Translations under genes and position numbers: made by a program | Assembly: GCA_963784445.1 (NCBI GenBank) | Contig: CAWARO010000006.1 | Span: 696,265 to 760,264, forward strand | DNA length: 64,000 nt | DNA from: an uncultured Acidimicrobiia bacterium | GTDB taxonomy: Bacteria; Acidobacteriota; Vicinamibacteria; Vicinamibacterales; UBA2999 | Direction: 5' to 3' | The notes under the pieces: model-generated | The model's database searches: none | What the model was told of the DNA's origin: nothing | Seen by the model: only the letters and a program-made list of their open reading frames with translations | Shown here: piece after piece, positions 23,994-51,334 of the stretch | Numbering within the stretch: position 1 is the first letter of the stretch | Layout of the letters: every line of letters begins with the position of its first letter

Positions 23994-26708
<2,715 letters not shown>

Positions 26709-26716
<8 letters not shown>

Positions 26717-28100: not shown

Positions 28101-28107
28101 GCCCGCA

Positions 28108-29804: not shown

Positions 29805-29845
29805 GCGCGCGTCTCCCAGGCCGCCGTGTGTATCGCGGGCGGTGC

Positions 29846-30421
29846 CTACTTGGTCTTCTTGACCTCCTTCAGCTGAACGACCTCCGCGCCATAGTCCTCG
29901 ACAACGAACGCGGCCTGATTCATCTTGATCTTTGCGGCAGGCGCGATGGTGCCAGTGCCGTTGCCCTTGGCATCGACCGTGATGTCAATCACCGCAAACT
30001 CATAACCCGCTTGTGGCTTGGCGCCCGGCACGCCGGCGCCGAGAAACAACAGCGGCTGATCGGTGATGATCGTCACCAGCCGGCCGTCGCCGATCGCGCG
30101 CTCCAGGGTGAGTCGCGTTGGCGTGGCCTTGCCCGTCCCGATCTGAACGGTGCCAGTGGGCGCGACACCCACGAGCGCTTTTCGCAACGCCGCCGGGCCG
30201 CCGGACGTGAACGCGGCGACGAGTCCGTCCGCCTCGCTTTGGGACATCTTGCGGGCGATCGAGATGGTTACCGGCGCGCTCGCCGATGCGCCGGCCGCGG
30301 TCTTCACGGCCGCTGTGGCCGTAAACACTTCGGCAGTCCCCTGTGCACGCAGGGACGCGGGCGCCATCAGTACGACGCCGGAAATCACGATGGTGCCAAT
30401 CATCCTGGATGTGACGGTCAT
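29846..30421 (-). CDS. Exported protein of unknown function (family X, paralogue of 38203..38808)
   Basis: Signal peptide MTVTSRMIGTIVISGVVLMAPASLRAQG. Colinear with 38203..38808 through EVFT[AG]TA, GYE[FV]AVI[DE], KG.GTG and [DE]DY[GA]EV. GGAGAGG-A7-ATG lies upstream. Confidence 0.6.
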   Translation of the reverse strand: MTVTSRMIGTIVISGVVLMAPASLRAQGTAEVFTATAAVKTAAGASASAPVTISIARKMSQSEADGLVAAFTSGGPAALRKALVGVAPTGTVQIGTGKATPTRLTLERAIGDGRLVTIITDQPLLFLGAGVPGAKPQAGYEFAVIDITVDAKGNGTGTIAPAAKIKMNQAAFVVEDYGAEVVQLKEVKKTK

Positions 30422-30464
30422 TTTTTTCCTCTCCCGACTGTGAATGCAGCGACACCAACCGACA

Positions 30465-30479
30465 GCAATCCACATGCCG
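30465..30479 (-). promoter_or_regulatory. Candidate sigma-54 promoter for family-X gene 29846..30421 (and possibly the downstream pentose-phosphate operon)
   Basis: The minus strand reads CGGCAT-gtgga-TTGCT, with a predicted leader of about 32 nt that contains an SD sequence. Confidence 0.5.
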
Positions 30480-30665: not shown

Positions 30666-31238
30666 ATGATGTCGAATCCTCGTGCTCTCAATGCACCGAC
30701 CGCGGCGCATGGCGCCTCGCGTGCCGTCTTCGCCGTCGTGCTCGCCGGCCTATGGTCGCTCGGCCTGCCAGCGACGGCACAGGCCTCCCTGCTGTCGCCC
30801 GAAGCCGAAGACGCCATGGCGAAATACGTCGCGATCTTCGCGCTCTGCTTCGTGCCCGTGGTTCTGATCGTTCTGTTCTGGATGGTGCACGTGATGCCTG
30901 AGAAGATCGCGCATAAGCGGCATCATCCGCAGGCCGAAGCCATCCACACGTTGTGCCTGCTGTCGCTGGTCTTCGGTGGATTGCTGTGGCCCATCGCGTG
31001 GCTGTGGGCGTACACCAAGCCGGTCGGCTACAAGCTGGCCTACGGCACCGACAAGCATCCCGACTACTTCAAGGAGCACGGCCTTGAGGAGCCGGCGAGC
31101 CCGACGGCCGACATCAGGCAGCGGGTCGCCGCTCTCGAAGAGCATGGAGTGCCGGCGAGTGAGCTCGACGCGATCCGCACCGATCTCGCCGCCATCGAGT
31201 CGCGACTCGCGGCAGCCGACCGGAGCGAGGCACGCTAA
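30666..31238 (+). CDS. DUF3302 (YiaW-like) inner-membrane protein
   Basis: AKYVAIFALCFVPVVLIVLFWMVHVMPEKIAHKRHHPQAEAIHTLCLLSLVFGG. It sits directly upstream of a YiaV-like HlyD gene, as in E. coli yiaWV. The start (30648, 30666 or 30669) is uncertain. Confidence 0.65.
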   Translation: MMSNPRALNAPTAAHGASRAVFAVVLAGLWSLGLPATAQASLLSPEAEDAMAKYVAIFALCFVPVVLIVLFWMVHVMPEKIAHKRHHPQAEAIHTLCLLSLVFGGLLWPIAWLWAYTKPVGYKLAYGTDKHPDYFKEHGLEEPASPTADIRQRVAALEEHGVPASELDAIRTDLAAIESRLAAADRSEAR

Positions 31239-32509
31239 TGGAAGTCATCCTGCTCGGCATCTATGCCTCGATCGTTTGGCTGATCTTCATCAAGTTCAAG
31301 CTGCTGCCGTGGACGACGCCGTGGAAGGTCGGCGTGGCAATCTTCCCGGTGGTCGTGTTGGCGGCGACCATACTGCTCCTCAACATCTTTGCGCCAACGA
31401 CCACCGACGTCAGGGTGGTGAAGTACGTGGTGCCGATCGTGGCGCAGGTGAAGGGACGCGTGATCGAGGTCCCGGTTCAGAACAACCAGGTCGTGAAGAA
31501 GGGCGACGTGCTGTTCCGCATCGACCCGACGCCGTACGCGAGCGAAGTACGCGCCCTCGAAGCACAGTTGGTGTCCGATGAGGCAAAGGTTGGTGCTGAG
31601 CGGGCCCGGTATGGCGAAACCGAGACGCGCCTACCGGATGCCCAATCGGGCGAGCGGCAGCTGAACGAACAACTCAACCAGGCGACGAGCCAGATTGCCT
31701 CGCTGCAAGCCTCACTCGAACTCGCGCGTCGTCGTGTGGCGCAGAACACCGAGCTCGCCGCCGCCGGCGCCGGGAATCGCTTCGACCTCGAGCAGGCACA
31801 GACGAACGTCAACGAACTCACCGCGCAGATCGCTGCGGCGCGCGCCGTGGAACAGCAGGTGCGGGAAAAACTGTCGGGCCGCATCAGGGGCGATCTTGCG
31901 ACCGTCGCCGGTGTCAAGGCCCAGATCACGACGGCGAACGCGCAAATTCGCGTCGCGCTCGCACAAATGGAGTCGACGCGCGCCAAGCTCGAAAATGCAC
32001 AATGGAATCTCGACCAGACCACCGTGGTCGCGCCGAGCAACGGCACCATGGTGAACGTGATGCTCCGGCCAGGCTATTTCGTGACCGGAGTCGCGTTCAA
32101 CGAGGTGATGACGTTCGTCGACACCGAATACCAGGTGTTCGCGTTGTTCAACCAGAACGAGCTGCACCAGGTCGAGCCCGGGAACGAAGCGGAGATCACG
32201 CTCGACACCTACCCCGGCCGCATCGTCAAGGCACACGTGGATTCGGTGATCTGGGCGCAGGCCCAGGGGCAGATTGATGCCTCGGGCAACCTTCCCACGA
32301 CCACGGTCGCTGCGCCACCGGGGCGGTTCCCGGTGAAGCTGGTGGTCGCCGAACGCGACCACCAATTGTTCCTGGCCGCCGGCGCCCGCGGCTCCGCGGC
32401 CATCTACACTGAGCACCTCGCGCTCATTCACCTGATCCGAAAAGTGCTGCTCAGAACGGCGTCGTATCTCGACTACGTAATCATCAAGCACCACATCAGC
32501 CTCCACTGA
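31238..32509 (+). CDS. HlyD-family membrane-fusion (periplasmic adaptor) protein, YiaV/AaeA-like
   Basis: N-terminal transmembrane segment, lipoyl-like VKGRVIEVPVQNNQVVKKGDVLFRIDPTPY, a long coiled coil and a beta-barrel domain. TAATG start/stop overlap with the DUF3302 gene. Confidence 0.8.
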   Translation: MEVILLGIYASIVWLIFIKFKLLPWTTPWKVGVAIFPVVVLAATILLLNIFAPTTTDVRVVKYVVPIVAQVKGRVIEVPVQNNQVVKKGDVLFRIDPTPYASEVRALEAQLVSDEAKVGAERARYGETETRLPDAQSGERQLNEQLNQATSQIASLQASLELARRRVAQNTELAAAGAGNRFDLEQAQTNVNELTAQIAAARAVEQQVREKLSGRIRGDLATVAGVKAQITTANAQIRVALAQMESTRAKLENAQWNLDQTTVVAPSNGTMVNVMLRPGYFVTGVAFNEVMTFVDTEYQVFALFNQNELHQVEPGNEAEITLDTYPGRIVKAHVDSVIWAQAQGQIDASGNLPTTTVAAPPGRFPVKLVVAERDHQLFLAAGARGSAAIYTEHLALIHLIRKVLLRTASYLDYVIIKHHISLH

Positions 32510-32519
32510 AAGACGGCCC

Positions 32520-33980
32520 ATGGCTTGCCCTCACCTGACGACCCGGCGCCGGCTTCGCGCCGCCGCAACCCCGCTCGCGACTGGACTGGTGGCGGCCATG
32601 ATCTCCGGCTGCGTCCTGAAGAACGCCCCGGATGCGACGGCCATTAAGGAGCAGGCGCTGCCCGCACTGCAGGCTCCCGCGGAGTGGACCGTGGCCGCTC
32701 CGGGCGTGCCGGGCGTGGGTGCGGTCGTCACCGGTTGGCTCGACGCGTTCAACGACGATCAATTGACGGCGGCCGTGACCGAAGCGATCGCGCACAACGC
32801 CGATCTGCGCGTCGGCGCCGCGCGTGTCGAGCAGGCGCAGCTGCATGCCAAGCTGGCGGGCGCCAAGCTCTGGCCGGCGGCCGACCTGCTCGCACGCGGC
32901 GGCGGCAAGATGTCCGGCGACGGTTCGGGCCTGCAGGGCGGCGTGCTGTCCGTCACCTGGGAAGTCGATTTGTGGGGCCGCGTCCGTTACGGCCGCGCGG
33001 CCAGCGCCGCGCAGGCGGCGTCGGCGGCGGCGGACTTCGAGTATGCGCAGCAATCGATTGCCGCCCTCGTGGCGAAGAGCTGGTTCCTGGCCATCGAGGC
33101 GAGCTTGCAGGCCGACGCAGCACGCGAGACGATCCGGTCGAACGAGGAGCTGGTCCGGCTCTCGGACGAGCGCGCGCGTATCGGGGTCGGCAATCAGGCC
33201 GATGTCTACTCGGCGCGCGCCACGGTCGGCTCCTACCGCGACCTGCTCCGCCAACTCGAGTTGGCCCGCAACGAAGCGATTCGCGCCCTCGAGCTCATGC
33301 TCGGGCGTTACCCGGCGGGTGCCGCCGCCACCTCGCTGCAGTTGCCGTCGTATCCCGGCTCCGTACCTGCCGGGCTCCCGTCAGAACTGCTCGAGCGCCG
33401 GCCGGATGTGATTGCCGCTGAGCGTCGCGTGGCGGCGGCGTTCAACCGCATTCACGAAGCCAAAGCGGCCCGGCTGCCGGTGATTTCGCTGACGACTGGC
33501 CTCAGCGCGATCTCGAGCGATCTGTTCCTGCTCAAGGATCACGACAACCCAGTCTGGAACGTCGGCGCCAGCCTGCTCGCGCCGCTGTTTCGCGGCGGCG
33601 CGCTCAAGACCCAGGTCGAGATTCGCACCGCGGAACAGAAACAGGCCATCGCCGAGTACGCCGTGATCGGGCTGCGTGCCTTCGGAGAAGTGGAAGCGGC
33701 ACTGGCGGCCGAGTTCGCGGCGCGCGATCGTGAAGAGATCCTGGCCGAGGCGTTCTCCAATAATCAGCAGGCGCTGACGATGGTGCAGACACAATTCAAG
33801 ATCGGCAGCACCGATCTCCGGTTCGTCGAACAGCGTCAGCTGGCGGTCGCCTCATCACGTTCCGCGCTGATTCGCGTGCAGGCCGAGCAGCGCATCCAAC
33901 GCGTCAATCTCCATCTCGCGCTGGGCGGAAGTTTTGCGGTCCCGCCGCCGCCGCCAACAACCGCGCCGCCGCCCCGCTAA
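32520..33980 (+). CDS. NodT-family outer-membrane efflux lipoprotein
   Basis: Lipobox AMISGC, WLDAFNDDQLTAAVTEAIAHNADLR, and two OEP repeats. Confidence 0.85.
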   Translation: MACPHLTTRRRLRAAATPLATGLVAAMISGCVLKNAPDATAIKEQALPALQAPAEWTVAAPGVPGVGAVVTGWLDAFNDDQLTAAVTEAIAHNADLRVGAARVEQAQLHAKLAGAKLWPAADLLARGGGKMSGDGSGLQGGVLSVTWEVDLWGRVRYGRAASAAQAASAAADFEYAQQSIAALVAKSWFLAIEASLQADAARETIRSNEELVRLSDERARIGVGNQADVYSARATVGSYRDLLRQLELARNEAIRALELMLGRYPAGAAATSLQLPSYPGSVPAGLPSELLERRPDVIAAERRVAAAFNRIHEAKAARLPVISLTTGLSAISSDLFLLKDHDNPVWNVGASLLAPLFRGGALKTQVEIRTAEQKQAIAEYAVIGLRAFGEVEAALAAEFAARDREEILAEAFSNNQQALTMVQTQFKIGSTDLRFVEQRQLAVASSRSALIRVQAEQRIQRVNLHLALGGSFAVPPPPPTTAPPPR

Positions 33981-35047
33981 GTCGTCGCACGTCGCTCGTC
34001 AGGCAACGGGGCCGGATCTTCAGCTAGCCAGGCCGCGACCAGCGTGTAACCCACGGCCAGCACCACGGGCCCGACGAATAGTCCGATCAAGCCAAACGCG
34101 AGCAGGCCGCCGATCACACCGGTGAACATGACCAGCATCGGCAGGTCTGCGCCCTTGGTCATCAGGAACGGCCGCAGGACGTTGTCGAGCGTTACCACCA
34201 CCAGTGACCAGAGCAGCAGCGCGGTGGCCGTGCCGGTGGCGCCCTGCCAGAAGAGCCACGCCACGCTCGGCATGAGCACCAACGCCGGACCGAGTTGGGC
34301 GATGCACGAGACGAAGGCGACAACGGACAACAGCGCCGCAAAGGGCACGCCGGCGATGGCCAGCGCAACACCGGTGAGGGCGGTCTGCACCAGCGCCGTG
34401 ACGACGATGCCGAGCGCGACGCCTCGGATCGCCTGCGCCGCCAGCCGGACAACCCGGTCGCCTTGCTCGCCGGCCAGTTTTCGGCCGAAACGCAAACAGC
34501 CGTCGGCCGCGCCCTCGCCTTTCGCATACATGACGCCGGCAATGATCAGCGTCAGCAGGAACTGCATCAGCAACCAGCCAAGGCTGCGCAACGTGCTCGC
34601 GATCCAGGCGACCGCGGTCACGGCATACGGCGCTGCGGTCGAGGCGAGATCGCCGATGGGACTCGCGGCTATCTTCTGCCATGCCTCCACGGCCTGCTTC
34701 CCGACGACAGGCAGGTTGCCCACCCACTCTGGCGGTGCCGGCGCAGCGAACGACCGCGCCGCTCCCGCCCACTCGACGATCTCCCCCGCATTGGCGACCA
34801 CCGTGCCGGTGGCGAGCGACAACGGGACGAGGAGGATCAGCACCCAGGCCACCAGCATCGCCGTCACGGCCAGGTACCGCCGGCCCCAGAGCCACGTCTG
34901 CAGCCGCCACATGACCGGCCACGTGGCGATGACGATCGTCGCGGCCCAAATGGTCGCGCCGAGGAAGGGCAGCAGAATCCACAGCGTCGACGCAATCAGC
35001 GCGACGATGCACAGAACGCCGAGGGTGGCGCGTGGCAGGTTGGACAC
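33977..35047 (-). CDS. AI-2E family transporter (PerM/YdiK-like, UPF0118)
   Basis: 356 aa, 7-8 transmembrane segments, conserved C-terminal block DNVLRPFLMTKGADLPMLVMFTGVIGGLLAFGLIGLFVGPVVLAV. Confidence 0.8.
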   Translation of the reverse strand: MSNLPRATLGVLCIVALIASTLWILLPFLGATIWAATIVIATWPVMWRLQTWLWGRRYLAVTAMLVAWVLILLVPLSLATGTVVANAGEIVEWAGAARSFAAPAPPEWVGNLPVVGKQAVEAWQKIAASPIGDLASTAAPYAVTAVAWIASTLRSLGWLLMQFLLTLIIAGVMYAKGEGAADGCLRFGRKLAGEQGDRVVRLAAQAIRGVALGIVVTALVQTALTGVALAIAGVPFAALLSVVAFVSCIAQLGPALVLMPSVAWLFWQGATGTATALLLWSLVVVTLDNVLRPFLMTKGADLPMLVMFTGVIGGLLAFGLIGLFVGPVVLAVGYTLVAAWLAEDPAPLPDERRATT

Positions 35048-35049
35048 AA

Positions 35050-36252
35050 TCAGAACACGGCACTCAACAGGCGCTTCAAGAGCTCCTCTAACGAAATCAT
35101 CGTCAGCAGCAACGGCGCCACCGGGGCGAGCGTGACGACCGCCAGCTGCATGATCGTCTCCTTCGAGAACGGCACGAAGCGTATCTCCCGGATGACCTGA
35201 AAACTGTTGGCGAGGTCAGCGAGCGACTGGATGTCGGCGCTGCCGACGAGTGGCTCCGCGGGTTCGGGCCCACCGCGCACCCACTTGGCGTCGAATTCCC
35301 GGACATAGCGCTGGGCGAGTACGCCGTATTCGCCGAGGCCGGTGCGCTTCAGGCGTGCCAGCTGTCCCACGAACGCCATCAAGGGACAGAGCACCAGCAA
35401 CACGAGCGCGCCGACGCCGCCAATGATTTCGACCATGAATTGCGGGAGCTCGGCGCCGTCAAAGAAGATGCGGTCGGCAATCAGGCCCGACAGCAGCACA
35501 CCGTGCGCCAGGAGGACCGGGGCGAACGCGTAGACGACATTGGTGAGAAATCCCAGCCCGCCGACGCGATCCGGGTGTGTGGCAACGAGCTTGAGATTGA
35601 GCCGTGAGACCTGCCAGAGGAAGCGCGCCCAGATGAACACACGAAAGTACCAGCGGAGCAACAGGAACTGGAAGATCGGCACGCTAATGAGCGCATGCCA
35701 CCAGCCGGCGAGCGAGAGACTGATCCACCCTGACGCGCTGGGCGCGGCTCCAGAGGCCCACGTGCTGGCGTCGACGGCGATGTAGTCGCGCATGGGGATG
35801 CCAACGGCGTAGATGACCGCGATCAGCGTGAGTTCCGCGGCAAGAGAGTTCCGCAAGCGCATCGCCGAATCAATCGCCGCCTTGACGCGCGGCCGGTCCT
35901 CGTCGGCAATCAGGTCCCGGCTGAAAAAGTGCGCGACCAGCCGCCGCATGCGAAGATGGACGCCGAGCTCGGCTACGATCAGCAGCGGCATCGCGAGCAG
36001 AAAGCGCCCCTGCACTTCGGCGTTGAGCAGAAAGGGCACGGTGACACCGCCCCACGCTCGCCCTTCGAGCACCGAGAGAAAGAAGAGGGGGACCCAGGTG
36101 ATCATGATCCCCGCCAGCACACGCCGATGGACAAGTGCCAGCGCGTCGTCGGAGAGGTGCGTTCGACGCAGGAGCTGGAACAGCGGTCCGCCGAGGACAA
36201 TGGAAAAGTCGACCGGCGCTTCCCACACCGGTGGTCGAGCGGCCGGGATCAT
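35050..36252 (-). CDS. Polytopic membrane protein of unknown function
   Basis: 400 aa with several hydrophobic helices (WWHALISVPIFQFLLLRWYF...). No family recognised. Only 2 nt separate it from the AI-2E gene. Confidence 0.6.
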   Translation of the reverse strand: MIPAARPPVWEAPVDFSIVLGGPLFQLLRRTHLSDDALALVHRRVLAGIMITWVPLFFLSVLEGRAWGGVTVPFLLNAEVQGRFLLAMPLLIVAELGVHLRMRRLVAHFFSRDLIADEDRPRVKAAIDSAMRLRNSLAAELTLIAVIYAVGIPMRDYIAVDASTWASGAAPSASGWISLSLAGWWHALISVPIFQFLLLRWYFRVFIWARFLWQVSRLNLKLVATHPDRVGGLGFLTNVVYAFAPVLLAHGVLLSGLIADRIFFDGAELPQFMVEIIGGVGALVLLVLCPLMAFVGQLARLKRTGLGEYGVLAQRYVREFDAKWVRGGPEPAEPLVGSADIQSLADLANSFQVIREIRFVPFSKETIMQLAVVTLAPVAPLLLTMISLEELLKRLLSAVF

Positions 36253-36298
36253 CGCGTGACCCTTTCGAACGCCGCTCTCGCTCCCCCCATGCTGGCCG

Positions 36299-37075
36299 CT
36301 ATGGCTTGACCGTGACCGCCGCGGTCAACTGGAACTGCAGGCGGGTTTCGGCCGGCAGCTTCAGGTGTTCCTGCCCCTGACTGGCGACCACCGCGCCGGT
36401 GGCCCCTCCGACGGCCGCCCCAATCGCCGCGCCCGAGCCGCCACCGACAATGCCGCCGACCACAGCACCCAGGCCGGCACCGCCACCAATCTTTCGTGCG
36501 CTGCTCTTTCCTTCGCCCGAGCCCTTCGTCTCGATAAAGGCCGTGACGACCTCGTAAGTCTGGCCGCCGAAGGTAATCGAGTTGGCCTTCAGAGAGATCT
36601 TGTCGCTGCCTTTGATCGTGCCCGACTGGGCGACGCTGACAGCCTGCACGATGACCACTGCGCCTCGCGGGATGACCACCTTGCCGTCCATCATGATCGG
36701 ATCGTCGACCAGGGCGCGAAACGTCTGGCCCGCTTTCGTGGCGTCCACATCAATCGTTTCGGTGAGACGGACATTGATCATCGTCTTGGCCGGCACCGTC
36801 ACGGGAGCCGGTGCGCGCGCCGGCGACGGTGCCGCCGGCGCAGGCGCCGGCTTGCGTTCCGTAAAGTCGATGCCGGCGATGTCCGCGACGCGAATATCGG
36901 CTCTTGTACCGTTCGCGAGCAGCAATCGTACGGTGCCCGCATCGGCGCCGGTCAGGGTCCCTTCGACGACCTTGCCAGACCGCAGCCGCACGCGGTCGGC
37001 TGACACGATGATGCCGGCCATCACGATCAGCATGACGGTCAGAATCGGGGAACGGAGCAACGGTATGGTGGTCAC
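36299..37075 (-). CDS. Exported protein with a C-terminal glycine-zipper segment
   Basis: N-terminal anchor or signal sequence, a Pro/Ala linker, and GGGAGLGAVVGGIVGGGSGAAIGAAVGGATGAVV (glycine-zipper-like). Confidence 0.6.
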   Translation of the reverse strand: MTTIPLLRSPILTVMLIVMAGIIVSADRVRLRSGKVVEGTLTGADAGTVRLLLANGTRADIRVADIAGIDFTERKPAPAPAAPSPARAPAPVTVPAKTMINVRLTETIDVDATKAGQTFRALVDDPIMMDGKVVIPRGAVVIVQAVSVAQSGTIKGSDKISLKANSITFGGQTYEVVTAFIETKGSGEGKSSARKIGGGAGLGAVVGGIVGGGSGAAIGAAVGGATGAVVASQGQEHLKLPAETRLQFQLTAAVTVKP

Positions 37076-37088
37076 GGTTGTGCCTCGC

Positions 37089-37592
37089 TCATTTGACGAT
37101 CGGAAGGGATGCGGCGATCTGCAGATCGATGATCAGCAGCAGCTGGTTCTCGACCTGGAGAAATTGAGCCGCGGTCTTGGCCGACAGCGCCGTTTTGAGA
37201 CGCGCATAGTATTTTTGTTTGAGCGCGGTACGGCGGCCCTCGAGCTCGAGCGCTTTTGTCGCCAGCTTGTCGGCGAGCGCTTCGCTCACCTTCTCGTAGT
37301 TGCGCGCGTACTCTTCGATGCCCGCCACGCGCTCGTCGTTGATCGCCGACAGCTCGACGTCGTACGCGCGATAAATCGGCCAGAAGACCTTGTCTTCCGC
37401 GTCAGTGAACGCCATTAACTCGGTGAGGAAGGCCACTTTCTGCGCGCGCACGTCAGCCCTCAACAGCTCGACGTAGGCACTCAGGTTCAGATCCTTCGTC
37501 TCGGCCGGCGTCACGGCCGGCTGCTGCGCCGACACGACCGTCGTCACCGTCATGATTGCCAGAATCACACCAGGCCGCAGTGGGTTCGTCAT
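37089..37592 (-). CDS. Periplasmic all-helical protein of unknown function
   Basis: Signal peptide ending VSAQQ, with helical heptad-like sequence through to the end. Overlaps the upstream gene by 4 nt. Confidence 0.55.
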   Translation of the reverse strand: MTNPLRPGVILAIMTVTTVVSAQQPAVTPAETKDLNLSAYVELLRADVRAQKVAFLTELMAFTDAEDKVFWPIYRAYDVELSAINDERVAGIEEYARNYEKVSEALADKLATKALELEGRRTALKQKYYARLKTALSAKTAAQFLQVENQLLLIIDLQIAASLPIVK

Positions 37593-38206
37593 TTTCGGGC
37601 CAATCCTTGTTTCTGAAGTTCCTTCACGGACTCTTTCACCAGATCTGTCACGAAACGTTGCAGGGTCTTGGGATTCCTCGTCTCACTAACGCCCGCCCAC
37701 AGCAACTTGTTGCGCGCGACCGAGAAGATCAGGGTCTCCACGGTGATGACGGTGTCTTTGTCGACACCGCCGATCACCACCACACTGGTGTAGCCGTATC
37801 CGTAGTAGCCCCAAAAGGTGTTGTACGACGGGCTCAGCCACAGACTGTCGTTATAAGAGATGCGTTTCTCACTGCTCACCGGCCGCAACGCGACAACACC
37901 TTCGACGTTGGCTTTCTCGAACCACCCTCGTGCGCGATCGGCGCTTTGCAGTTCTTCCTTTGGCGCAATGCGATAGGTGGCCACGGCTTGCAGGCCGCGA
38001 GCGGTCAGCTCGGTGACGAGCGATTCCTCGCCAGCGACCCGCAGCGAGTCGTCCTGGGTAATGACGAGCGCCGCGATTTTCTTGCCGGCGAAACTGACTT
38101 GCGCGGCATCGGGCGATTTCCACACCGACTTGAAGTCGGGCGCGGCCGACACCACGGCCACGGCCGCGAGGGCCGCTGTGACAGTCGTGATCAGGGAGCG
38201 CGTCAT
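37589..38206 (-). CDS. Exported DUF4136-like protein
   Basis: Signal peptide, a Gly/Tyr-rich loop (FWGYYGYGYTS), then TLIFSVARNKLLWAG and a C-terminal helix. The layout resembles 39400..39933. Confidence 0.55.
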   Translation of the reverse strand: MTRSLITTVTAALAAVAVVSAAPDFKSVWKSPDAAQVSFAGKKIAALVITQDDSLRVAGEESLVTELTARGLQAVATYRIAPKEELQSADRARGWFEKANVEGVVALRPVSSEKRISYNDSLWLSPSYNTFWGYYGYGYTSVVVIGGVDKDTVITVETLIFSVARNKLLWAGVSETRNPKTLQRFVTDLVKESVKELQKQGLARK

Positions 38207-38808
38207 GATGGCTTCCGCGCGATGTTGGTCAACGTGATGAGCACCTCGGCGTAGTCGTCGAGCAACACGCCGCCGTCGCCATCGGGCCGGACCCGTGCCG
38301 CCCCGGCCATCGATCCGGTGCCCGCGCCCTTCGGGTCGATGCGCATTTCGATCACCGCGACTTCGTAGCCCTTGCGCGGCGCCGACTCCGCCCGGCCACC
38401 GCCGATGAAGTAGGCGGGTTTGTCGGTCACCACAACGACCGTTCGGCCCGTGGCGTCGACTTTCTCGCGGGCATACCGGATCGCGATGGGCGCGCCTCCG
38501 GCGAGCACGAGTTGGCCGACTTCAGGAGCATTGCGAATCGCGGTGAGAAACCGCGGATAGCCGCCTTCTTTCAGCGCGGTCTCGACGGCCTTCTTGTCGA
38601 ACTCCGGCGTCATGCGCCGCAGCCTGACTTCCAGCGTGCCCGACACCGCCCCGGTAGCGTTTTTTGCGTTCGCGGTGCCGGTGAACACTTCCGGCTGGCT
38701 CGGCGCCTGGGCGCCGACCTGGGTCGGGACGCCAAGCAGGAGCACGATCGTCAACGTCGTCGCGATTTGCACAACTACTCCTCTAGCCGTCACTAGCTTT
38801 TCTTCCAC
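38203..38808 (-). CDS. Exported protein of unknown function (family X, paralogue of 29846..30421)
   Basis: Signal peptide, EVFTGTANAKNATG, GYEVAVIEMRIDPKGAGTG and DDYAEVLITL. Overlaps both neighbouring genes. The start (38808 or an internal GTG) is uncertain. Confidence 0.6.
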   Translation of the reverse strand: MEEKLVTARGVVVQIATTLTIVLLLGVPTQVGAQAPSQPEVFTGTANAKNATGAVSGTLEVRLRRMTPEFDKKAVETALKEGGYPRFLTAIRNAPEVGQLVLAGGAPIAIRYAREKVDATGRTVVVVTDKPAYFIGGGRAESAPRKGYEVAVIEMRIDPKGAGTGSMAGAARVRPDGDGGVLLDDYAEVLITLTNIARKPS

Positions 38809-39341
38809 CGGCTGACCGAGAGCGCCGCGCCGTTCTCGTCCTTGGTCGTGAGCGTCAGGACGTCACCCGCCACCTCCCAATGCCGCGGCCGGTTTGGCGA
38901 CAGCGGTCCGCCGCCGGTCTTCATCGCCGAGGGCTGTCCTTCGAGAATGTAGGTGAGCGTGCGGTTCTGCATGTCGACCGCGGTGCGGCCGCTGGTCGAG
39001 ATCACGCCGTCGGGAATCACGAGGCCTCCGGCGCGCAGCAGATCCGACGAGGCCTCATCCGCCTTGACGTTCATCTCCAGGTTGCCGAAGCCGTCGTAGT
39101 TGAGAACCCCGGTGCCCTTCAGCGTGATCGGCTTCGCGCCGACGGGAGTGATCACGAACGACTCGAGGAGCCAGCGGCCCTCGAGAAACTTGCGCGCCGC
39201 CGCCGTCGTGCCGGCGCCGTCGGGCACCGGGCCCATCGACACCACGCGCTGCCGTTCCGATGCCGCGCAGCCCATCGCGGCCGTCAGCAATGACACCGCA
39301 AGGGCGGCTTTCCAAACCCGTTGCACACTCATCGTCTGCAC
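38793..39341 (-). CDS. Lipoprotein of unknown function (lipocalin-like size)
   Basis: Lipobox LLTAAMGC, 182 aa, beta-rich. Confidence 0.6.
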   Translation of the reverse strand: MQTMSVQRVWKAALAVSLLTAAMGCAASERQRVVSMGPVPDGAGTTAAARKFLEGRWLLESFVITPVGAKPITLKGTGVLNYDGFGNLEMNVKADEASSDLLRAGGLVIPDGVISTSGRTAVDMQNRTLTYILEGQPSAMKTGGGPLSPNRPRHWEVAGDVLTLTTKDENGAALSVSRWKKS

Positions 39342-39399
39342 CTCGCTCGCCTTCCGGCGTCACGAACCGCCAGCGGTGAGCCGATTGTCGCGGAGAGGT

Positions 39400-39933
39400 C
39401 TACTTCGTCTTGGCCACGGGCGGAAAGTTCTTGAACATCTTCGTCGCGGCCTTCTCCAGCCGGCTTTTGTTCTTGTCCGGGTTGTCGGAGATCTCGTCCT
39501 CGGCAGTGCCCCTGAACACGAGGTTCTTGTTCGAGGCGTTGAACATGTCGACCACCAGCGTGCCAACGGTGTATTCGCTCACCACCGTCGTGGCCGTGCC
39601 CATGCCGCCGAAGCCGCGGTAGCCGTAACCACCCATGCCGCTGTAGTGGGTGCTGGCGTTGCGCTTGGCCTGCGTAGCGCCGTGCAGGACCACGATGATG
39701 TTCGGGTTGTCGGCGACTTTCTTCCAACCCTTGGCGGCGATCTCCTCGTCGAATTCGGCGAGCACGCGGCGCTGCGACAGGTCATTGCCCCACGTCGTCC
39801 CGATGGCGATCGAATAGGTCTTCACCGTCGAAAAGTCGAATGCCTTGTCGAAATCGATCTTGACGTCCTGTGCCGCGGCCAGCGCCGGGATCATGAGGAG
39901 CGAAGCAGTGATCAGTGAGCGTAACGTGTTCAA
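39400..39933 (-). CDS. DUF4136 domain protein (exported)
   Basis: Motifs YSGMGGYGYRGFGGMG, YTVGTLVVDMFNASNKNLVFRGTA and KMFKNFP. I chose the TTG at 39933 because AGGAGG-N6 precedes it and the ATG at 39969 overlaps the -12 promoter element. Confidence 0.7.
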   Translation of the reverse strand: MNTLRSLITASLLMIPALAAAQDVKIDFDKAFDFSTVKTYSIAIGTTWGNDLSQRRVLAEFDEEIAAKGWKKVADNPNIIVVLHGATQAKRNASTHYSGMGGYGYRGFGGMGTATTVVSEYTVGTLVVDMFNASNKNLVFRGTAEDEISDNPDKNKSRLEKAATKMFKNFPPVAKTK

Positions 39934-39970
39934 GATGGGCCTCCTGGGTTGTGTCCGGCACGATCGCATC

Positions 39971-39985
39971 GCAAAGAGCGCGCCA
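39971..39985 (-). promoter_or_regulatory. Candidate sigma-54 promoter for the eight-gene operon 39933..33977
   Basis: The minus strand reads TGGCGC-gctct-TTGCG with exact GG-N10-GC spacing. The predicted leader is about 26 nt and carries AGGAGG. The GAF-EBP gene lies 0.8 kb upstream. Confidence 0.55.
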
Positions 39986-40219
39986 GCGGATTCGGGGAGA
40001 AATCGCCGCCGCTGATCGAGACGCTCACAACATGCGGTGAGAGGCTCTCGGACTGCGGGTGTCGGCGGCGCGGCCGATCGACGAAATGACGAATTCGAGC
40101 CGACAAATTCAATTTTTCGTCGCAGCACGGCAGGCCCACTTTTTGCGATGGTGAGGGGAAATGTCGTCACCCCTCGCCATCGCCCGCTGGATGTCGTTCA
40201 CCCTTGCCAGGCTGCGTAA

Positions 40220-40420
40220 GTGAAAAGGCCAGCCGTGGTCGTGGCAACGGCGTTCGTGATCGCATCGAGCGCAAGCGCGCGGGCTCAGAAGAGGACTGAC
40301 GTGGTCACCCTACTCAACGGCGATCGGCCCACTGGCGAGATCCCGAACCTGAATCGCGGACGGCTCGAGTTAAAGACCGACGCTGCCGGTCGGCCGTTCT
40401 CAATCGGTTCGTTGTACTGA
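40220..40420 (+). pseudogene. Probable 5' remnant of an exported protein gene
   Basis: 66 aa consisting of a signal peptide plus DVVTLLNGDRPTGEIPNLNRGRLELKTD. This resembles the N-terminus of larger OM-associated proteins and then stops abruptly. Confidence 0.3.
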
Positions 40421-40442
40421 CGTTTGCCCGGAGGAGGTTGCC

Positions 40443-40736
40443 GTGGAGTGCTGGATCGGCGTGGTGACGGAGGGTGAGCGGCGAATCGTGCGCGTGGCCG
40501 GGAGGCTGAGCGCCGCGCACGTGGCCGAGATGCTCACGGCCTGCGCCGACAGCGCGGTGTTGGAGATTGACCTGACGGATCTGGTGTCGGCTGATGGCGC
40601 GGGCATTGAAGCGCTCCAACGCGTCCGCACTCGTGGCGCCACCTTGGTCGGTACGCCGGGATACATCCAGCTCAAACTCGACTTGCCGTCCGCGGGCGCG
40701 GCACGGACGACGCCGCCGCGGGGCCGCCACAGCTAG
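40443..40736 (+). CDS. Small STAS-like (anti-sigma-factor-antagonist-like) protein
   Basis: 97 aa with IVRVAGRLSAAHVAEMLTACADSAVLEIDLTDLVSADGAGIEAL. GGAGGAGG-N5-GTG lies upstream. Confidence 0.45.
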   Translation: MECWIGVVTEGERRIVRVAGRLSAAHVAEMLTACADSAVLEIDLTDLVSADGAGIEALQRVRTRGATLVGTPGYIQLKLDLPSAGAARTTPPRGRHS

Positions 40737-40760
40737 CTAGCCCCACGGCGATCACCGCGA

Positions 40761-42386
40761 CTAGGCCGACCCGCCCAAGCCGTCGCCCTGGTGCCGGGCC
40801 CGTTCAGCGGGGCCGGCCACACCGAGCTTCTTCATCCGGAATCGCAGCGTGTTCGGGTGGATGCCGAGCCGCTCAGCCGCGTTTCCCGCCCCGTTGATCC
40901 GCCAGTGGCAACTCTGCAACACCGACTCAATGTGCATGCGCTGCACCGCGTCGAGATTGTCCGACGCGCTGGCAGGCATGACGCCCGTGTGCGTGAAGCG
41001 CAGCGGCTCGTCGAGCTGCAGGGTGTCGCCGGTGGAGGCGATCATCGCTCGCTCGACCACATTCTCCAGCTCGCGCACGTTGCCGGGCCAGGCGTGTTGC
41101 TGCAGGGCGCCCATCACGCCCGGCGGCACCTTCGTGATGTGACGCCCGAGCTCACGCTGATGACGGTTGATGAAGAACCACACCAGCTGTGGAATGTCTT
41201 CGCGGCGTTCGCGCAGCGAGGGCAGCTGGATCGGATACACGCTGAGCCGGTAATACAGGTCCGACCGGAAGGTGCCGGCCGCGACCGCGGCCTCGAGATC
41301 GCGATGGGTCGCCGCGATGACGCGCACGTCGACGGTCTTGGTGCGCGACGAGCCGACCCGCTCGAACTCGCCTTCCTGCAGTACGCGCAGAAATTTCACC
41401 TGGATGTCGGGCGGCAGATCGCCGATCTCGTCGAGGAAGATCGTGCCGCCGTCGGCCAGCTCGAACCGTCCTTGCCTGGCGGCGACGGCGCCGGTAAATG
41501 CGCCCTTCTCATGACCGAATAACTCGCTTTCGACAAGAGATGGCGGCAAGGCCGCGCAATTGACCCGGACCAACGGGCGCGCGTGACGCCGGCTGCGCTC
41601 GTGTAACGCCCGGGCGAACAGCTCCTTGCCAGTCCCGGTCGGGCCGAGCAGCAACACGCCCGAGTTGGTGGGCGCCACTTGCGCCAACCGCGCCAGCGCG
41701 AGACGCAGCGACGCGCTCTCGCCGACAATGTCGTCGAAGTCGTGAAGACTCTTGATTTCTTCTTTCAGGTAGCCGTTGTCCGCTTCGAGCCGGGCATTGA
41801 GCTCCTCGATCACGGTCACATTGGCACGTAGTGCCGTCTCGTGCCGGCCGCGCTGCAGCGCCGACGCCAGAATCTCGGTCATGAGCTGCAGCCGCTCGGC
41901 CAGCAGCGGCGTCCAGCGGCGCGGCAGCCGGCCGCAGTCGACCACCAGCGCACACACCACCTGCGTTCCGGCGGAGGCCGGCACGCCGAGGATCGAATAG
42001 GCGCCGGTCAGGCGCGATCGGTCACGACTGGCGGCGGCCTCGCGTGGCAGCTCCTCTGGCCGCGAGATCGACACCAGCTCGCCGCGCGACAAACGCTCGA
42101 CCAGCCAGTCCTCGGCCAGCGCGTGGTGCGCGCCGGCGGGCGGCCTGACCGTGCCACCGGCGGAATGAATCCGCCCCACCGTTCCAGAACCGGTGAACTC
42201 GAGCAGCCGGCAGTTCTCGGCGCGGATCGCCGCCGCGATCTCGGCGAGTGCCTGGGCCAGGGCTCCAGGCATGTCGTCGAATGGCACGCGCGTCAGCCGC
42301 CCCGACAGGGACGCGGCCAGTTGCGCGAGTGGGTCGAAATCGGTTTCAGGGACGTTCCGTGACGCTGAAATATTGACCACTGACAT
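40761..42386 (-). CDS. Sigma-54-dependent transcriptional activator (GAF sensor, AAA+ domain, Fis-type HTH)
   Basis: Walker A GPTGTGKE, the sigma-54 contact loop GAFTGA ([15 protein letters not shown]), R-finger region, and the C-terminal [24 protein letters not shown]. The N-terminus is GAF-like and there is no REC domain. Confidence 0.85.
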
Positions 42387-42428
42387 AAGTAACCTCGTGC
42401 AAAGCATGCGTTCGTAGTGAATTTGCCC

Positions 42429-42851
42429 TTACCGCCGCGACCGCCTCAGCTCCTCCCCTTGCATACTGCTGCTGACATGGCGCTCGCCGCGAAGGGCCGC
42501 GTGCACGGCCGGCACCAGGTCGTCGCCGGCCGCAAGTTTCAGGACGTAGCCGAGGGCGCCGGTGGCCAGCCCTCGGGCCACCAGCACGGGATCGGCATGG
42601 ACGCTAATCAAGACGATCCGGGCCATGGGGTTCATTTCCAGGATTCTGGCCGCCGCCGTGATCCCGTCGAGTTCGGGCATCGAGATGTCGCTGACAATGA
42701 CGTCGGGCAACAGGCGTGCAGCGTCACAGACCAGGGTGCGGCCGTCAGTGACGTGCCCAATCACGTCGAACTCCGGCTCCAGCAACTCGCACAGCTGCGC
42801 GGCGGTGTCGAGATGGTCGTCGGCGAGCAACAAACGGGTCCGGGACATCAT
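42429..42851 (-). CDS. Single-domain response regulator (REC only)
   Basis: LLLADDH...DVIVSDISMPELDG...VLISVH: the CheY-like acidic pocket and phospho-acceptor Asp context. Confidence 0.75.
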   Translation of the reverse strand: MMSRTRLLLADDHLDTAAQLCELLEPEFDVIGHVTDGRTLVCDAARLLPDVIVSDISMPELDGITAAARILEMNPMARIVLISVHADPVLVARGLATGALGYVLKLAAGDDLVPAVHAALRGERHVSSSMQGEELRRSRR

Positions 42852-42987: not shown

Positions 42988-43629
42988 TCAGTCCCCTGTG
43001 AGCCGCTGCTCGATGGCGTACCTTACGAGTTCCGCTGTGGAATGGACGCCGAGGACCTGCATCATCTCGTATTTGTGGGTTTCGACCGTCCGCGTCGACA
43101 GCTCCAACGCGGCGGCAATCTCCTTCATGCGCTGTCCCTTTACGATCAGGCGCAGGACATCGAGCTGCCGGGGCGTGAGCTCCGGGCCTGACCGGCTCCC
43201 GGCGTCGGCCATCCGCTCCATTACGGCGCGCGTCACCGCCGCCGTCAGGTAGACACGTCCCTGTAACGCCTGGCGAATGGCGGTGACCAGCTCCTCGCCC
43301 GCCGACTCTTTCAGGAGAAACGCCGAGGCTCCGGCCTTCAGGGCCTGCGTGGCCCGCTCGCCATCGTTGTGCATCGTCAGCACCACGACCTTGCTGTCGA
43401 TGCGCTCGTCTTTCAGCTTGCCGAGCACATCGAGACCGCTCAGGGCCGGCATCGACAGATCGGTGACGATCACATCCGGTTTCAGCCGGCGCGCCGCCTC
43501 GATCAGTTTCTCGCCGTCGCCGACGGCCCCGACGACGTCGAATTCATGCTCCTTGAGCAGGGAGACGAGGCCTTCCATGACGATAGCGTGATCGTCGGCG
43601 ATGAGAACGGTGGTTTGGCGGGTGGTCAT
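42988..43629 (-). CDS. NarL/FixJ (LuxR)-family response regulator
   Basis: REC domain (VLIADDH, DVIVTDLSMPALSG) plus LuxR HTH (LTPRQLDVLRLIVKGQRMKEIAAALELSTRTVETHK). Confidence 0.85.
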   Translation of the reverse strand: MTTRQTTVLIADDHAIVMEGLVSLLKEHEFDVVGAVGDGEKLIEAARRLKPDVIVTDLSMPALSGLDVLGKLKDERIDSKVVVLTMHNDGERATQALKAGASAFLLKESAGEELVTAIRQALQGRVYLTAAVTRAVMERMADAGSRSGPELTPRQLDVLRLIVKGQRMKEIAAALELSTRTVETHKYEMMQVLGVHSTAELVRYAIEQRLTGD

Positions 43630-43634: not shown

Positions 43635-45976
43635 TCAGTTTGGCGGGCGGTGCGGGGCGTGCCCGTTGGCCGGCACCTGGACGCGAAGTCGCGTGCCCTT
43701 GTTCAGTTCGGTCATGATGCTCACGGTACCACCGACGAGCCTGACCCGCTCGCTGATACTGACCAGGCCGAGACCGTGGCCGTCTCTGCCGGCGCCGACG
43801 ATGTCAAAACCCTGGCCATCATCAGCGATCGATAGCTCTGCCAAGTCGCCAGCGCGGAACAGACGCACCTCGGCGCGCCTGGCGTTGGCGTGCGTCACCA
43901 CATTGCGCAGACCCTCCTGGGCGACCCGGTACAGGCACAGTGCCGTGTCGGCCGAGGTGGAGGCGAAGTCCCCATCGGCGCTGAAGGTCACCGCGATCCG
44001 CTGATGGCGCTCGATCTCGGCGCAATGCGTGGTCAGCGCAGCTGACCAGCCCGGCGTGCTCGAGCACGCTCGGATGCAGGTCGTGCGAGAGGTCGCGGAC
44101 GTTCTCGGCGAGCGCGACCGTGCGCTGCTGAACAGCATGACACGTCGCGCGCCAGGACGGCGCCGCCCGGCATGCCCGTCGACCTGCCGCTTGATGCCGC
44201 TCAGCGCGATCGAGAGGCCGGCGATTTCCTGACTGAGATCATCGTGCAAGTCACGCGCGATCCGCGCCCGCTCGACCTCCTGGGAGGCGATCAACCGTCC
44301 GGCCAGATGCGTCAATTTCCCGATGGCTGGCGTCGAGCACCGCCTGGTTCTCGCGGATCGCCTCCTCGGCGAGCTTCCGTTCGGTGATGTCAACCTTGGT
44401 GCCCACCAGCCGGCGCAGGCTGCGGTCGGCAGCCCGCAGCGCGGACCCGCGCGAGAGCATCCACTTCACGCTGCCATCTTTGTGCAGCATCCGATGCTCG
44501 ATTTCGTACGTATCGGTGATGCCATCGATGCAGTTCTGGACGCCGCGCGGCCGCGACGGCAAGGTCTTCGGGGTGGACTCGCGATCCCCAGTCGTCCGGC
44601 CGGGTTGAGATCTCCCAATCGTCGAACCCCAGGAGTGACTTCAATCCCGAGTCCACGAACAGCTCGTTGGTCTCGAAGTTCCAGTCCCACACGCCGACGG
44701 CGCCGGCCGCGGCCGCCAGCGAGTAGCGCTGCTGGCTGTCGAGCAGCGCCGTCTCCACTCGCCGTCGTCGCGCGCGCTGGAACAACAGCGCGCCGATTAA
44801 CGAGGTCTGCAATCCGAGCAGGAGGATCGCACCGACGATTAGCGGTCGGTACTGACCCCAAGCGCTGACTTGCCTGAAAAGGATGGTGCTGCCGGAGGGC
44901 AACAGGGACTCGCTGATGTTCCAGCGTTGCAGCTTCCGCCAATCGAAGAGATCGACGTTTGCTCCGCCTTCGCGCAACGGGAGCGCTGACGGCTGTTCGC
45001 CCGCGAGAATTCGGCGTACCAGGCCAGCAGCTTGCTCGCCGTGAGCGGTGACGCTGTACAGCCGCCCGCCGACGATACCTCGTCCCATGAGTTGGTCTAG
45101 AAATCCATAGACGGGCACGTTCGCCGCTGCGGTGATGCGCTCGGCGACCTCGTGAGGGACGAATGCTTCGCCGGCGCCGTCTCTAAACATCGTGGAATAG
45201 AGGACGACCGTTTGTGGCGGCAGGTTCGCGAGCTGGGCCAGCAGTTGGCGGAGCGGCAGTGCCGTCTGGTAGGTGAAAGTGAGCCGACCTTCATACGGGC
45301 GGAGTTCTCGCCGGGCCTGTTCGACCAGCCGCGTGTCAAACTCGGACGTGCCACCAATGAACATCACGTGGCTGGTGCCGGGATGAAGCCGCAGCGCGAT
45401 GTCCAACGTCGGTGAGAACTCTCGCTTCACGAGGACACCGGTCACGTGACTTGGTAGCGAACGGCCCTCGATCTCTCGCCGGTCGATCCCACAAAACACG
45501 ATCGGCGTGCCAGGGAAGATCAGCTCGCCCTCACCGAGGAGGAAGTCGAGCGCGGGGCCCATCACCGCCACGACCACATCAATCTTTTTCGCCGCGTACT
45601 TCGTGCGAAGGTAGTCGCGCAGCAACCGCGGGTACCCGTCTGAACCGAACCGGGACAAATCCATCGCTTCGCGATAGACCTCAACCGACCCCGACCGATC
45701 CGCCGTCAGTGATTGCTCAAGAGCGGCGTCGAGAACGGCCAACCCGGGAAAATCGAGGCGTTCGTCATAGAGCAGAACAACCCGGTGAGTTTCGACTTCC
45801 TCTTCGTCGGCCGGGCGCGGACGGTCGACGCCAGCGGGATTGCTCGGGCTGATGGGGGCTTGGGCAGTCACTACGCCCGACTCATCGAACGCGCGGCCTT
45901 GCAACGGCGCGGTTGATTGCGCGTGAAGTGGTGCGGCGGCGAGCAGCACCAGGGCGAGCGCGGTAGTGACCGACAT
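43635..45976 (-). pseudogene. Sensor histidine kinase (periplasmic ABC-substrate-binding-like domain, TM, PAS, HisKA_3, HATPase_c), disrupted by at least 5 frameshifts
   Basis: ORFs 44390..45976, 44251..44562 and 43635..44393 are colinear. The H-box is EVERARIARDLHDD. The second DHp helix (VQQRTVALAENVRDLSHDLHPSVLEHAGLVS) sits in another frame between about 44045 and 44170. Further junctions lie at about 44563 and 44316. Confidence 0.8.
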
Positions 45977-49848: not shown

Positions 49849-49865
49849 ATGCGTATCCACCCGAA

Positions 49866-49923: not shown

Positions 49924-49927
49924 AAAC

Positions 49928-51319: not shown

Positions 51320-51334
51320 ATCAGTCTCTTGTCT

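Follow-up and report, generated by a model that had tools for sequence, protein, structure and literature searches.

Eight envelope genes beside a sigma-54 activator cassette

We analyzed a 64-kb stretch of DNA from a Vicinamibacteria-type acidobacterium (the window; all coordinates are window positions), which contains on its minus strand a row of eight genes for envelope proteins, G1 to G8, and next to it a regulatory cassette with a sigma-54 enhancer-binding protein (the activator). A first-pass annotation had read the eight genes as a self-contained, sigma-54-driven envelope module. Domain and fold searches, together with comparison loci fetched from other genomes and metagenomes (L-numbers), strengthened the case for sigma-54 control and pointed to a regulon with exchangeable members. 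The row and the cassette comprise the following genes.

39400..39933, minus strand: G1, exported DUF4136 protein with a TTG start (Pfam E 2.5e-36)
38793..39332, minus strand: G2, small lipoprotein-like protein of a narrow family, no domain match
38203..38808, minus strand: G3, exported "family X" protein
37589..38206, minus strand: G4, exported, distantly DUF4136-like protein
37089..37592, minus strand: G5, exported four-helix protein (AlphaFold [AF2] model, predicted local distance difference test [pLDDT] 80)
36299..37075, minus strand: G6, exported protein; beta N-domain, then a Pro/Ala linker, with a glycine zipper at the C terminus
35050..36252, minus strand: G7, polytopic membrane protein of 400 aa; its family is very large and uncharacterized
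33977..35047, minus strand: G8, AI-2E family transporter of the YdiK type
40443..40736, plus strand: STAS-like gene for a 97-aa cytoplasmic protein, with a GGAGGAG ribosome site and a GTG start
40761..42407, minus strand: sigma-54 enhancer-binding protein with a divergent GAF-like N terminus, an AAA+ domain with GAFTGA, and HTH_8
42429..42851, minus strand: REC-only stand-alone receiver, immediately upstream of the activator gene (Response_reg 2.5e-17)
42988..43629, minus strand: NarL/LuxR-type response regulator, REC plus GerE (Response_reg 7.8e-28, GerE 1.9e-18)
43635..45976, minus strand: sensor histidine kinase with a periplasmic domain, PAS, HisKA_3 and HATPase_c, its frame broken ∼4 times

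The list of open reading frames and their translations confirmed eight tightly packed genes from 39933 to 33977 with the overlaps and gaps described in the first-pass annotation, no intergenic gap exceeding 67 nt. Its statement that every product is exported, a lipoprotein or membrane bound also held, as the sequences showed signal peptides, transmembrane segments and, in G2, a lipobox-like AAMGC. The proposed domain and fold searches were run with Pfam, NCBIfam and the PDB on the products and with Foldseek on G5 and G7; they placed G1 and G8 and left the rest without a confident match. G1 is a DUF4136 protein (PF13590; 125.8 bits versus a gathering cutoff of 32.8), and G8 is an AI-2E/YdiK protein (NF008216, 350.6 bits versus an equivalog cutoff of 305; full-length match to PDB 7OT9, E 2.7e-82). 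The labels of two further products are weak: G4 shows weak similarity to DUF4136 (pairwise BLASTP against G1, E 0.005) but misses the Pfam cutoff (E 0.014, 16.3 bits versus 32.8), and G6 matches Gly-zipper_YMGG (E 8e-6) but again misses the cutoff (25.9 bits versus 28.9). Weak PDB matches of G6 were to an OmpA-family protein and to SlyB (E 0.13). G2, G3, G5 and G7 matched nothing in Pfam, NCBIfam or the PDB sequences, in agreement with the view of envelope products without known function, and PDB sequence searches with G1, G2, G3, G5, G6, G7 and the STAS-like open reading frame returned nothing significant. Scans of the window with Rfam and for tRNAs found nothing.

The four unannotated genes (G2, G3, G5 and G7) are real; each has hundreds to thousands of conserved metagenome homologues. 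G2 has 243 representative clusters among 1.84 billion proteins; G3 has 426 homologue clusters, all hypothetical and 188 to 193 aa long, and probably starts a few codons downstream of its annotated start. For G5, 2861 homologue clusters were found, and for G7 at least 7995, none with a Pfam domain, from Acidobacteriota, Myxococcota and Proteobacteria. An AF2 model of G7 from 85 homologues (pLDDT 75, predicted template modeling score 0.69) is helical with about seven membrane segments and had no fold match in the PDB by Foldseek (best E 0.83, template modeling [TM] score 0.24); the G7 alignment contains an invariant HPD-x2-GGLGF loop. The best Foldseek matches of the G5 model were STV from Salmonella (5io8; probability 0.96, TM score [target] 0.57, E 0.34) and, with many entries, CnrX, a periplasmic metal sensor (probability 0.8 to 0.93, TM score [target] 0.62 to 0.67, E 0.9 to 2). 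We take CnrX and STV to belong structurally with the CpxP/Spy/ZraP envelope-stress proteins. No Pfam family matched G5 at E ≤ 0.1, and there was thus no CpxP/Spy-type match (LTXXQ, Metal_resist) among the hits.

The activator has the features of a bacterial enhancer-binding protein, namely an AAA+ sigma-54 interaction domain with GAFTGA (Sigma54_activat, E 2.5e-70) and a C-terminal helix-turn-helix domain (HTH_8, 5.9e-8), together with AAA_lid_14, a Walker A motif GPTGTGKE and a Walker B motif FLDEIGD. It probably starts at M8 (42386), which is invariant in the orthologue alignment. The first-pass annotation had placed here an activator with an intact GAFTGA loop and a GAF sensor in place of REC. 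The loop and the lack of REC were borne out, but the GAF match was weak (E 0.001, 20.0 bits versus 22.4), which makes "GAF sensor" no more than a plausible label. Likewise, the kinase, the LuxR-type regulator and the REC-only gene do lie on the activator strand, but the kinase frame is broken about four times within ∼500 bp (∼44545 to 44040). The intact 732-aa kinase of L027 aligned by tblastn through frames −1/−2/−3/−2/−3, and Pfam placed PAS_3 in one open reading frame and HisKA_3 plus HATPase_c in the next. Because the other genes of the island are intact, the breaks indicate either a pseudogene or a local assembly fault.

The STAS-like gene is absent from the first-pass gene list. It occupies the opposite strand in the ∼0.8-kb stretch between the activator gene and G1, convergent with the former and divergent from the latter. 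Its product is 57 to 98% identical in relatives, whose proteins carry a weak STAS_2 mark in precomputed matches. At what we take to be the position of the SpoIIAA-type phosphorylatable serine, the STAS-like protein reads D-G-A-G. The cassette of NarL-type response regulator, REC-only protein, GAF-like/AAA+/HTH activator and convergent STAS-like gene adjoins a divergent control region.

A palindrome between two conserved −24/−12 elements

The control region contains one palindrome flanked by two conserved −24/−12 elements, which face G1 and the STAS-like gene. Its elements are listed in order of position.

39970..39985, minus strand: −24/−12 promoter of G1, TGGCGCgctctTTGCG, with GG-N10-GC spacing
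40024..40041, no strand assigned: putative upstream activating sequence (UAS), an 18-bp perfect palindrome CTCACCGCATGTTGTGAG (CTCAC-N8-GTGAG), conserved and unique in the window
40079..40122, no strand assigned: imperfect A/T-rich palindrome between the promoters (inverted repeat I2; 17-nt arms, 76% complementary)
40133..40148, plus strand: second −24/−12-like promoter, toward the STAS-like gene, GGCCCActttTTGCGA; conserved block GGCCCACTTTTTGCGA

The promoter given in the first-pass annotation, TGGCGC-N5-TTGCG followed by AGGAGG-N6-TTG, was found as written (sequence context, CTGGCGCgctctTTGCGA). TGGCGCgctctTTGCG fits TGGCAC-N5-TTGCW, and the TTG start of G1 (39933) lies 37 nt past the downstream end of the motif. 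A bare −24/−12 motif is no rarer than chance: TGGC-N7-TTGC had 6 matches in the window versus 3.05 expected, and a scored scan yielded 13 matches versus 14.5 in shuffles. In an alignment of the control regions of five loci (the window, L020, L027, L028 and L029), 14 of the 18 columns of the G1 promoter were invariant versus 54 of 458 in the remaining intergenic DNA; the start codon and ribosome site of G1 were kept as well. Because it is conserved against a variable background and paired with a conserved UAS, the G1 site is credible as a putative sigma-54 promoter and as more than a chance match. A scan for sigma-70-like promoters and intrinsic terminators inside the operon found none above chance.

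The palindrome sits 38 bp upstream of the −24 element of G1, and 17 of its 18 columns were invariant in the five loci. CTCAC-N8-GTGAG occurs exactly once in the 64-kb window; in 710 kb, made up of the window and the fetched loci, it was found 11 times versus 0.68 expected (∼16-fold), in 9 of these 11 cases beside a −24/−12 motif. Since it is retained in loci without the LuxR-type regulator (L001, L032 and L064), we assign it, putatively, to the enhancer-binding protein; the LuxR-type regulator, also considered as its binder, is disfavored by the persistence of the palindrome where that gene is absent. The conserved element together with this palindromic UAS strengthened the earlier proposal that the adjacent activator exerts sigma-54 control over the row. 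The G1-G2 spacer carries CTCAC-N12-GTGAC, which has the wrong spacing for the UAS and is unproven.

The promoter facing the STAS-like gene lies ∼92 nt from the palindrome, on the side away from G1. It has GG-N10-GC spacing, with 12 of 16 columns invariant in the five loci, and in L032 and L033 TGGC-N7-CTTGC is likewise found directly upstream of the STAS-like gene. Inverted repeat I2 overlaps the conserved block ATTTGTCGGyTyGAAT and could be a site for a bending protein or for a second regulator. Just past the promoter, at 40145-40183, is a 14-nt hairpin (93% complementary), and the leader before the STAS-like gene is ∼165 nt longer in the window than in the near-identical relative L028.

A stable cassette with exchangeable cargo

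Two sets of loci were compared: 26 genomic loci fetched via G7 (from Acidobacteriota, Myxococcota, and Beta- and Gammaproteobacteria) and activator loci fetched through the activator's sensor domain from genomes and metagenomes. Gene content was counted in the 30 loci that had an orthologous activator and were 8 kb or longer; L028 and L020, whose activator genes are fragmented, were left out of this count. The relatives all came from soil or rhizosphere metagenomes. The REC-only gene was present in 25 of the 30 loci and the NarL/LuxR-type regulator gene in 21, and a convergent STAS-like gene lay at most 2.5 kb downstream of the activator gene in 36 of the 42 loci with room for it. Genes of the row were present in fewer loci (G3 in 12, G2 in 11, G4 in 8, G7 in 7, G1 in 5, G5 and G8 in 4 each, and G6 in 3), and only the window had the full set.

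These counts, with close relatives that lack G8 or G5 and G6, did not support the first-pass notion of a self-contained eight-gene module. DUF4136, family X, glycine-zipper and AI-2E genes, whose joint occurrence that notion implied, did not travel together; only the G2-G3 pair recurred, sometimes with a DUF4136 gene. Among the closest loci, the order G1-G6/G7 is the same in L027, L028, L020 and L041; G8 is absent from L027 and L020, and G5 plus G6 from L029, with the general layout kept. In L020 (6615-6885), G1 is followed by a GC-rich terminator-like hairpin with a T-run and then by a TGGCC-N6-TTGC promoter before G2; therefore, the "operon" there consists of at least two units. G7 stands alone in at least 20 unrelated genomes, including Proteobacteria and Myxococcota, and among the 26 genomes it had no conserved neighbors outside the Acidobacteriota clade. 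A possible internal promoter of G8, TGGC-N7-CTGC within the 3′ end of G7, was rejected because it is conserved coding sequence that is also found in L027, which lacks G8.

Members of the row were also found behind promoters of their own. Stand-alone G2-G3 pairs in L035, L036, L048 and L086 are preceded by a CTCAC-N8-GTGAC-type site and CTGG(C/T)CCGnTCCTTGC; those of L085 and L102 have the promoter and no exact UAS-like match. L032 has two G3-like genes, each behind the palindrome and AGGCATGTCGGTTGCC, L031 a G5-like gene behind the −24/−12 promoter TGGCGCGCTCCTTGC, and L001 a gene for a 1006-aa exported protein behind palindrome and promoter. Beside the cassette itself, L032 has G2-like, G3-like (twice), DUF4136 and Omp85-like genes, and other loci have DUF3943, DUF2490, MetA-type barrel or MscS-type genes. 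Taken together, the sequence comparison describes a regulon whose regulatory cassette is stable, whose core of G2-G3 (plus DUF4136) recurs and whose envelope cargo appears to be exchanged between lineages. The earlier description was thus partly supported: the eight genes are real, but they look like a flexible, lineage-specific regulon rather than a fixed eight-part machine.

In L048, L085, L086, L092 and L102, the 3′ end of a HisKA_3-type kinase gene is directly followed by a stand-alone G2-G3 pair, which lies 5 to 7 kb away from the activator cassette on the other strand. In L001 (16162-18741), a G3-like gene adjoins a second, paralogous GAF-type sigma-54 activator that is 47% identical to that of the window (GAF E 4.3e-5).

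Further sigma-54-type promoters in the window

Judged by sequence, the controlled set probably exceeds that of the first-pass annotation, taking in the STAS-like gene, a G3 paralogue and an operon of DUF3302, membrane fusion protein (MFP) and outer membrane factor (OMF) genes. The features concerned are listed here.

29846..30421, minus strand: G3b, paralogue of G3 (27% identical, E 3e-18)
30464..30478, minus strand: −24/−12 promoter of G3b, GGCATgtggaTTGCT, conserved in L027 and L028
30626..30641, plus strand: −24/−12 promoter of the DUF3302-MFP-OMF operon, TGGCACggcccGTGCT, conserved in six loci
30672..33980, plus strand: DUF3302 membrane protein, HlyD/EmrA-type MFP and NodT-type OMF (Pfam, NCBIfam)

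The promoters GGCATgtggaTTGCT and TGGCACggcccGTGCT are divergent. The form AGGCATGTCGGTTGCC found before both G3-like genes of L032 is of the GGCATgtggaTTGCT type. The DUF3302-MFP-OMF operon, whose MFP is of the EmrA/MdtN type, is convergent with the G8 gene, an arrangement kept in L001, L020, L027, L028 and L029. On the other side, ROK kinase, 6PGD-like, G6PD and MGH1-like GH63 genes come after G3b on its strand (23990-30421), possibly as a single operon for sugars or compatible solutes driven by sigma-54. The G2-G3 pairs of L034 and L035 likewise have GH63 genes nearby.

Comparison with known systems

The arrangement resembles the Psp system (PspF and the sigma-54-dependent pspABCDE) in having a receiver-less activator beside a sigma-54 operon, a UAS in a divergent control region and an envelope output. 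A small cytoplasmic protein under the same control could here exert feedback on the activator, comparable to that of PspA on PspF. Unlike in Psp, the activator keeps a GAF-like domain, the cargo consists of exported families without known function, the feedback candidate is STAS-like, and no PspA/IM30 or other Psp component was among the Pfam hits of the eight products. Here, as in ZraPSR of Escherichia coli, an activator and a sigma-54 promoter would drive an all-helical periplasmic protein from a divergent control region. ZraR, however, is a receiver-domain response regulator, whereas the receiver here is a separate gene, and G5 is an optional regulon member without sequence similarity to ZraP and with no Pfam family among its hits. 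The region is a member of neither Psp nor Zra: PspA/IM30 is missing from the hits, G5 fails the CpxP/Spy/ZraP sequence tests, and the activator stays under every NCBIfam equivalog cutoff.

In its domains (GAF-like, AAA+ with GAFTGA, Fis-type HTH) the activator is similar to NifA, NorR and FhlA. Its best NCBIfam matches were NifA (382 bits versus an equivalog cutoff of 529) and NorR (352 versus 476). It differs from these proteins in its scores, all below the cutoffs, in its marginal GAF match, in its targets, which are envelope genes, and in its UAS, which is CTCAC-N8-GTGAG rather than TGT-N10-ACA. G8 aligns over its full length with E. coli YdiK (PDB 7OT9) and exceeds the equivalog cutoff, but it is an optional last gene of an operon behind a sigma-54-type promoter, whereas YdiK has no known substrate and was reported to be under PurR, not sigma-54, control (PMC9475539). 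The C-terminal zipper of G6 matches Gly-zipper_YMGG and, weakly, SlyB-type lipoproteins; these scores are below threshold, and G6 differs from SlyB in lacking a lipobox and in having additional N-terminal and middle domains. SlyB is a stress-induced outer membrane lipoprotein that protects the envelope. The DUF3302-MFP-OMF set, a DUF3302 protein plus an EmrA/MdtN-type MFP and a NodT-type OMF, can be compared with E. coli YiaW-YiaV; the operon in the window has no inner membrane pump gene and is preceded by a conserved sigma-54 promoter. A literature search on DUF4136 and on sigma-54 in Acidobacteria found nothing on this system. The only paper found that ties DUF4136 to regulation describes a Burkholderia "BiofilmReg" operon, in which a DUF4136 gene lies beside a two-component system in an unrelated layout (PMC5192318).

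Proposed mechanism and alternatives

We hold with moderate confidence that Vicinamibacteria-type soil Acidobacteriota have a lineage-specific sigma-54 regulon for inducible envelope protection or adaptation, of which this locus is one part. In the proposed mechanism, the activator would bind the palindrome as a dimer and then oligomerize. Once its GAF-like domain senses a signal, with the REC-only protein and the kinase as possible modulators of that step, it would remodel the sigma-54 holoenzyme at both promoters and so license ATP-dependent opening. A single G1-to-G8 transcript, if made in this genome, would deliver two DUF4136-type proteins, the G2 lipoprotein, G3, the CnrX/CpxP-like helical protein, the glycine-zipper protein, G7 and the YdiK-type transporter, and the co-induced STAS-like protein may feed back on the activator. 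Other nearby sigma-54-type promoters would drive the G3 paralogue and the DUF3302-MFP-OMF efflux set, and the response as a whole would protect or remodel the envelope. An inducible protection or adaptation response with Psp/Zra-like logic seems the most likely output. It is suggested by the CnrX/STV-like model of G5, the SlyB-like zipper of G6 and the adjoining MFP and OMF genes, which are hints and not proof, and the Omp85-like, DUF3943, DUF2490 and MscS proteins of other loci give the regulon cargo its envelope flavor.

Several observations weigh against this interpretation, and most of our doubt concerns the physiological role and the feedback step. The indications of a stress-protection role are circumstantial. 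Judged by its E values (0.3 to 2), the G5 fold match lacks significance, and hhalign of G5 with E. coli ZraP gave a probability of 0.1, i.e., no similarity. The N terminus of the activator aligns over the full length of the GAF model with a score below the Pfam cutoff, and the STAS-like open reading frame reaches only STAS E 0.032 and STAS_2 E 0.049, both below the cutoffs. The −24 hexamer of the promoter facing the STAS-like gene is noncanonical (no T, and CCC replaces CAC). For a single G1-G8 transcript the argument is gene spacing alone, and L020 separates G1 from G2 by a hairpin and a second promoter. With a frameshifted kinase, the signaling input may be impaired; alternatively, the assembly may be at fault here. 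Finally, rpoN was not seen in the window.

That the eight genes form a self-contained, coevolving envelope machine with interdependent parts, as the first-pass annotation held, would agree with their tight packing, with overlapping stops and starts, and with the gene order shared by L027, L028, L020 and L041. We consider it decidedly unlikely, given that all eight genes are found together in 1 of the 30 activator loci, that G8 is missing from L027 and L020 and G5 plus G6 from L029, that G2-G3, G3, G5 and G1 form independent sigma-54 units elsewhere, and that G7 occurs alone in Proteobacteria and Myxococcota. It is very improbable, on the other hand, that the −24/−12 match is fortuitous and that the genes are expressed from unrecognized promoters of another type, independently of the neighboring activator. 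Sigma-54-like motifs in the window are indeed no commoner than in shuffles, and acidobacterial sigma-70-type promoters are poorly defined, so that a sigma-70 scan may miss some; however, loci with diverged flanks have kept the GG, the GC and the distance between them as well as the neighboring palindrome, and the same motif pair precedes different cargo genes.

Two further alternatives concern the role of the regulon. In a metal or ion homeostasis regulon, G5 would act as a CnrX/ZraP-like sensor or chaperone, and the MFP-OMF set and the YdiK-type transporter would export the ion. ZraP itself depends on sigma-54 and its activator, and Foldseek ranked the metal sensor CnrX and STV highest for G5. 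Related islands have Na_Ca_ex, VIT1 and MscS genes in their vicinity, and in the window a sigma-54-like site stands before Na_Ca_ex. Some AI-2E members are reported to be Na+(Li+)/H+ antiporters (PMC7221264). Against these points stand the E values of the G5 fold match, the lack of a CpxP/Spy-type Pfam match among its hits, the hhalign result with ZraP, the presence of G5 in only 4 of the 30 activator loci and the fact that no metal-binding motif was identified, and we regard this role as unlikely. Quite unlikely, too, is an osmotic, desiccation or compatible-solute regulon, in which the exported proteins would shield the envelope while cells dry and are rewetted, alongside the catabolism of sugars and solutes. 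Here the row of sugar genes headed by G3b, the GH63 genes of L034 and L035, the MscS-type channels that adjoin the cassette in L033 and lie near G2-G3 in L035, and the soil or rhizosphere origin of all relatives would fit, but the association is loose (about half of the G3 loci examined), with no direct link to an osmolyte.

Beyond the envelope regulon preferred here, the locus might represent a new type of circuit, in which a stand-alone receiver and a sigma-54-induced STAS-like partner control, in trans, a GAF-type activator that has no receiver domain, with partner switching acting on the activator instead of on a sigma factor. G2, G3, DUF4136 and G7 would then constitute an undescribed periplasmic or outer membrane protection system of soil Acidobacteriota. 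We think this unlikely.

Significance and neighboring features

Vicinamibacteria-type Acidobacteriota are represented in many soil and rhizosphere metagenomes, and we know of nothing reported on envelope protection in them. The locus offers a concrete regulon, with an activator, its probable 18-bp site, several −24/−12 promoters and the recurrent families G2, G3 and DUF4136. It is unusual, and of wider interest, that a sigma-54 activator and a small STAS-like protein are paired almost obligately. G7 is of wider interest too: its family has thousands of members in different phyla and lacks a Pfam entry, and no relative by fold could be detected for it in the PDB. Because activators that drive envelope genes with sigma-54 are already well known, these findings are a useful extension rather than a surprise: new here are the uncharacterized cargo and the pairing of activator and STAS-like protein, the regulatory logic being known already.

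Upstream of the kinase gene, positions 46251-53315 contain a second HATPase_c fragment (39% identical to the C terminus of the kinase), a gene for an ankyrin-repeat protein of 559 aa, and a pair of genes, DUF1552 / DUF1592-DUF1588-DUF1585 (PSD/PSCyt), of the kind typically seen for exported proteins that are Planctomycetota-like. Two other high-scoring −24/−12 matches in the window, both on the minus strand, lie before the Na_Ca_ex gene (8342, TGGCAGtcctcTTGCT) and before a gene for a DcaP-like outer membrane protein (18534, TGGCAGtcgaaTTGCT). The DcaP gene of L027 also has TGGC-N7-TTGC upstream (L027 position 17202).

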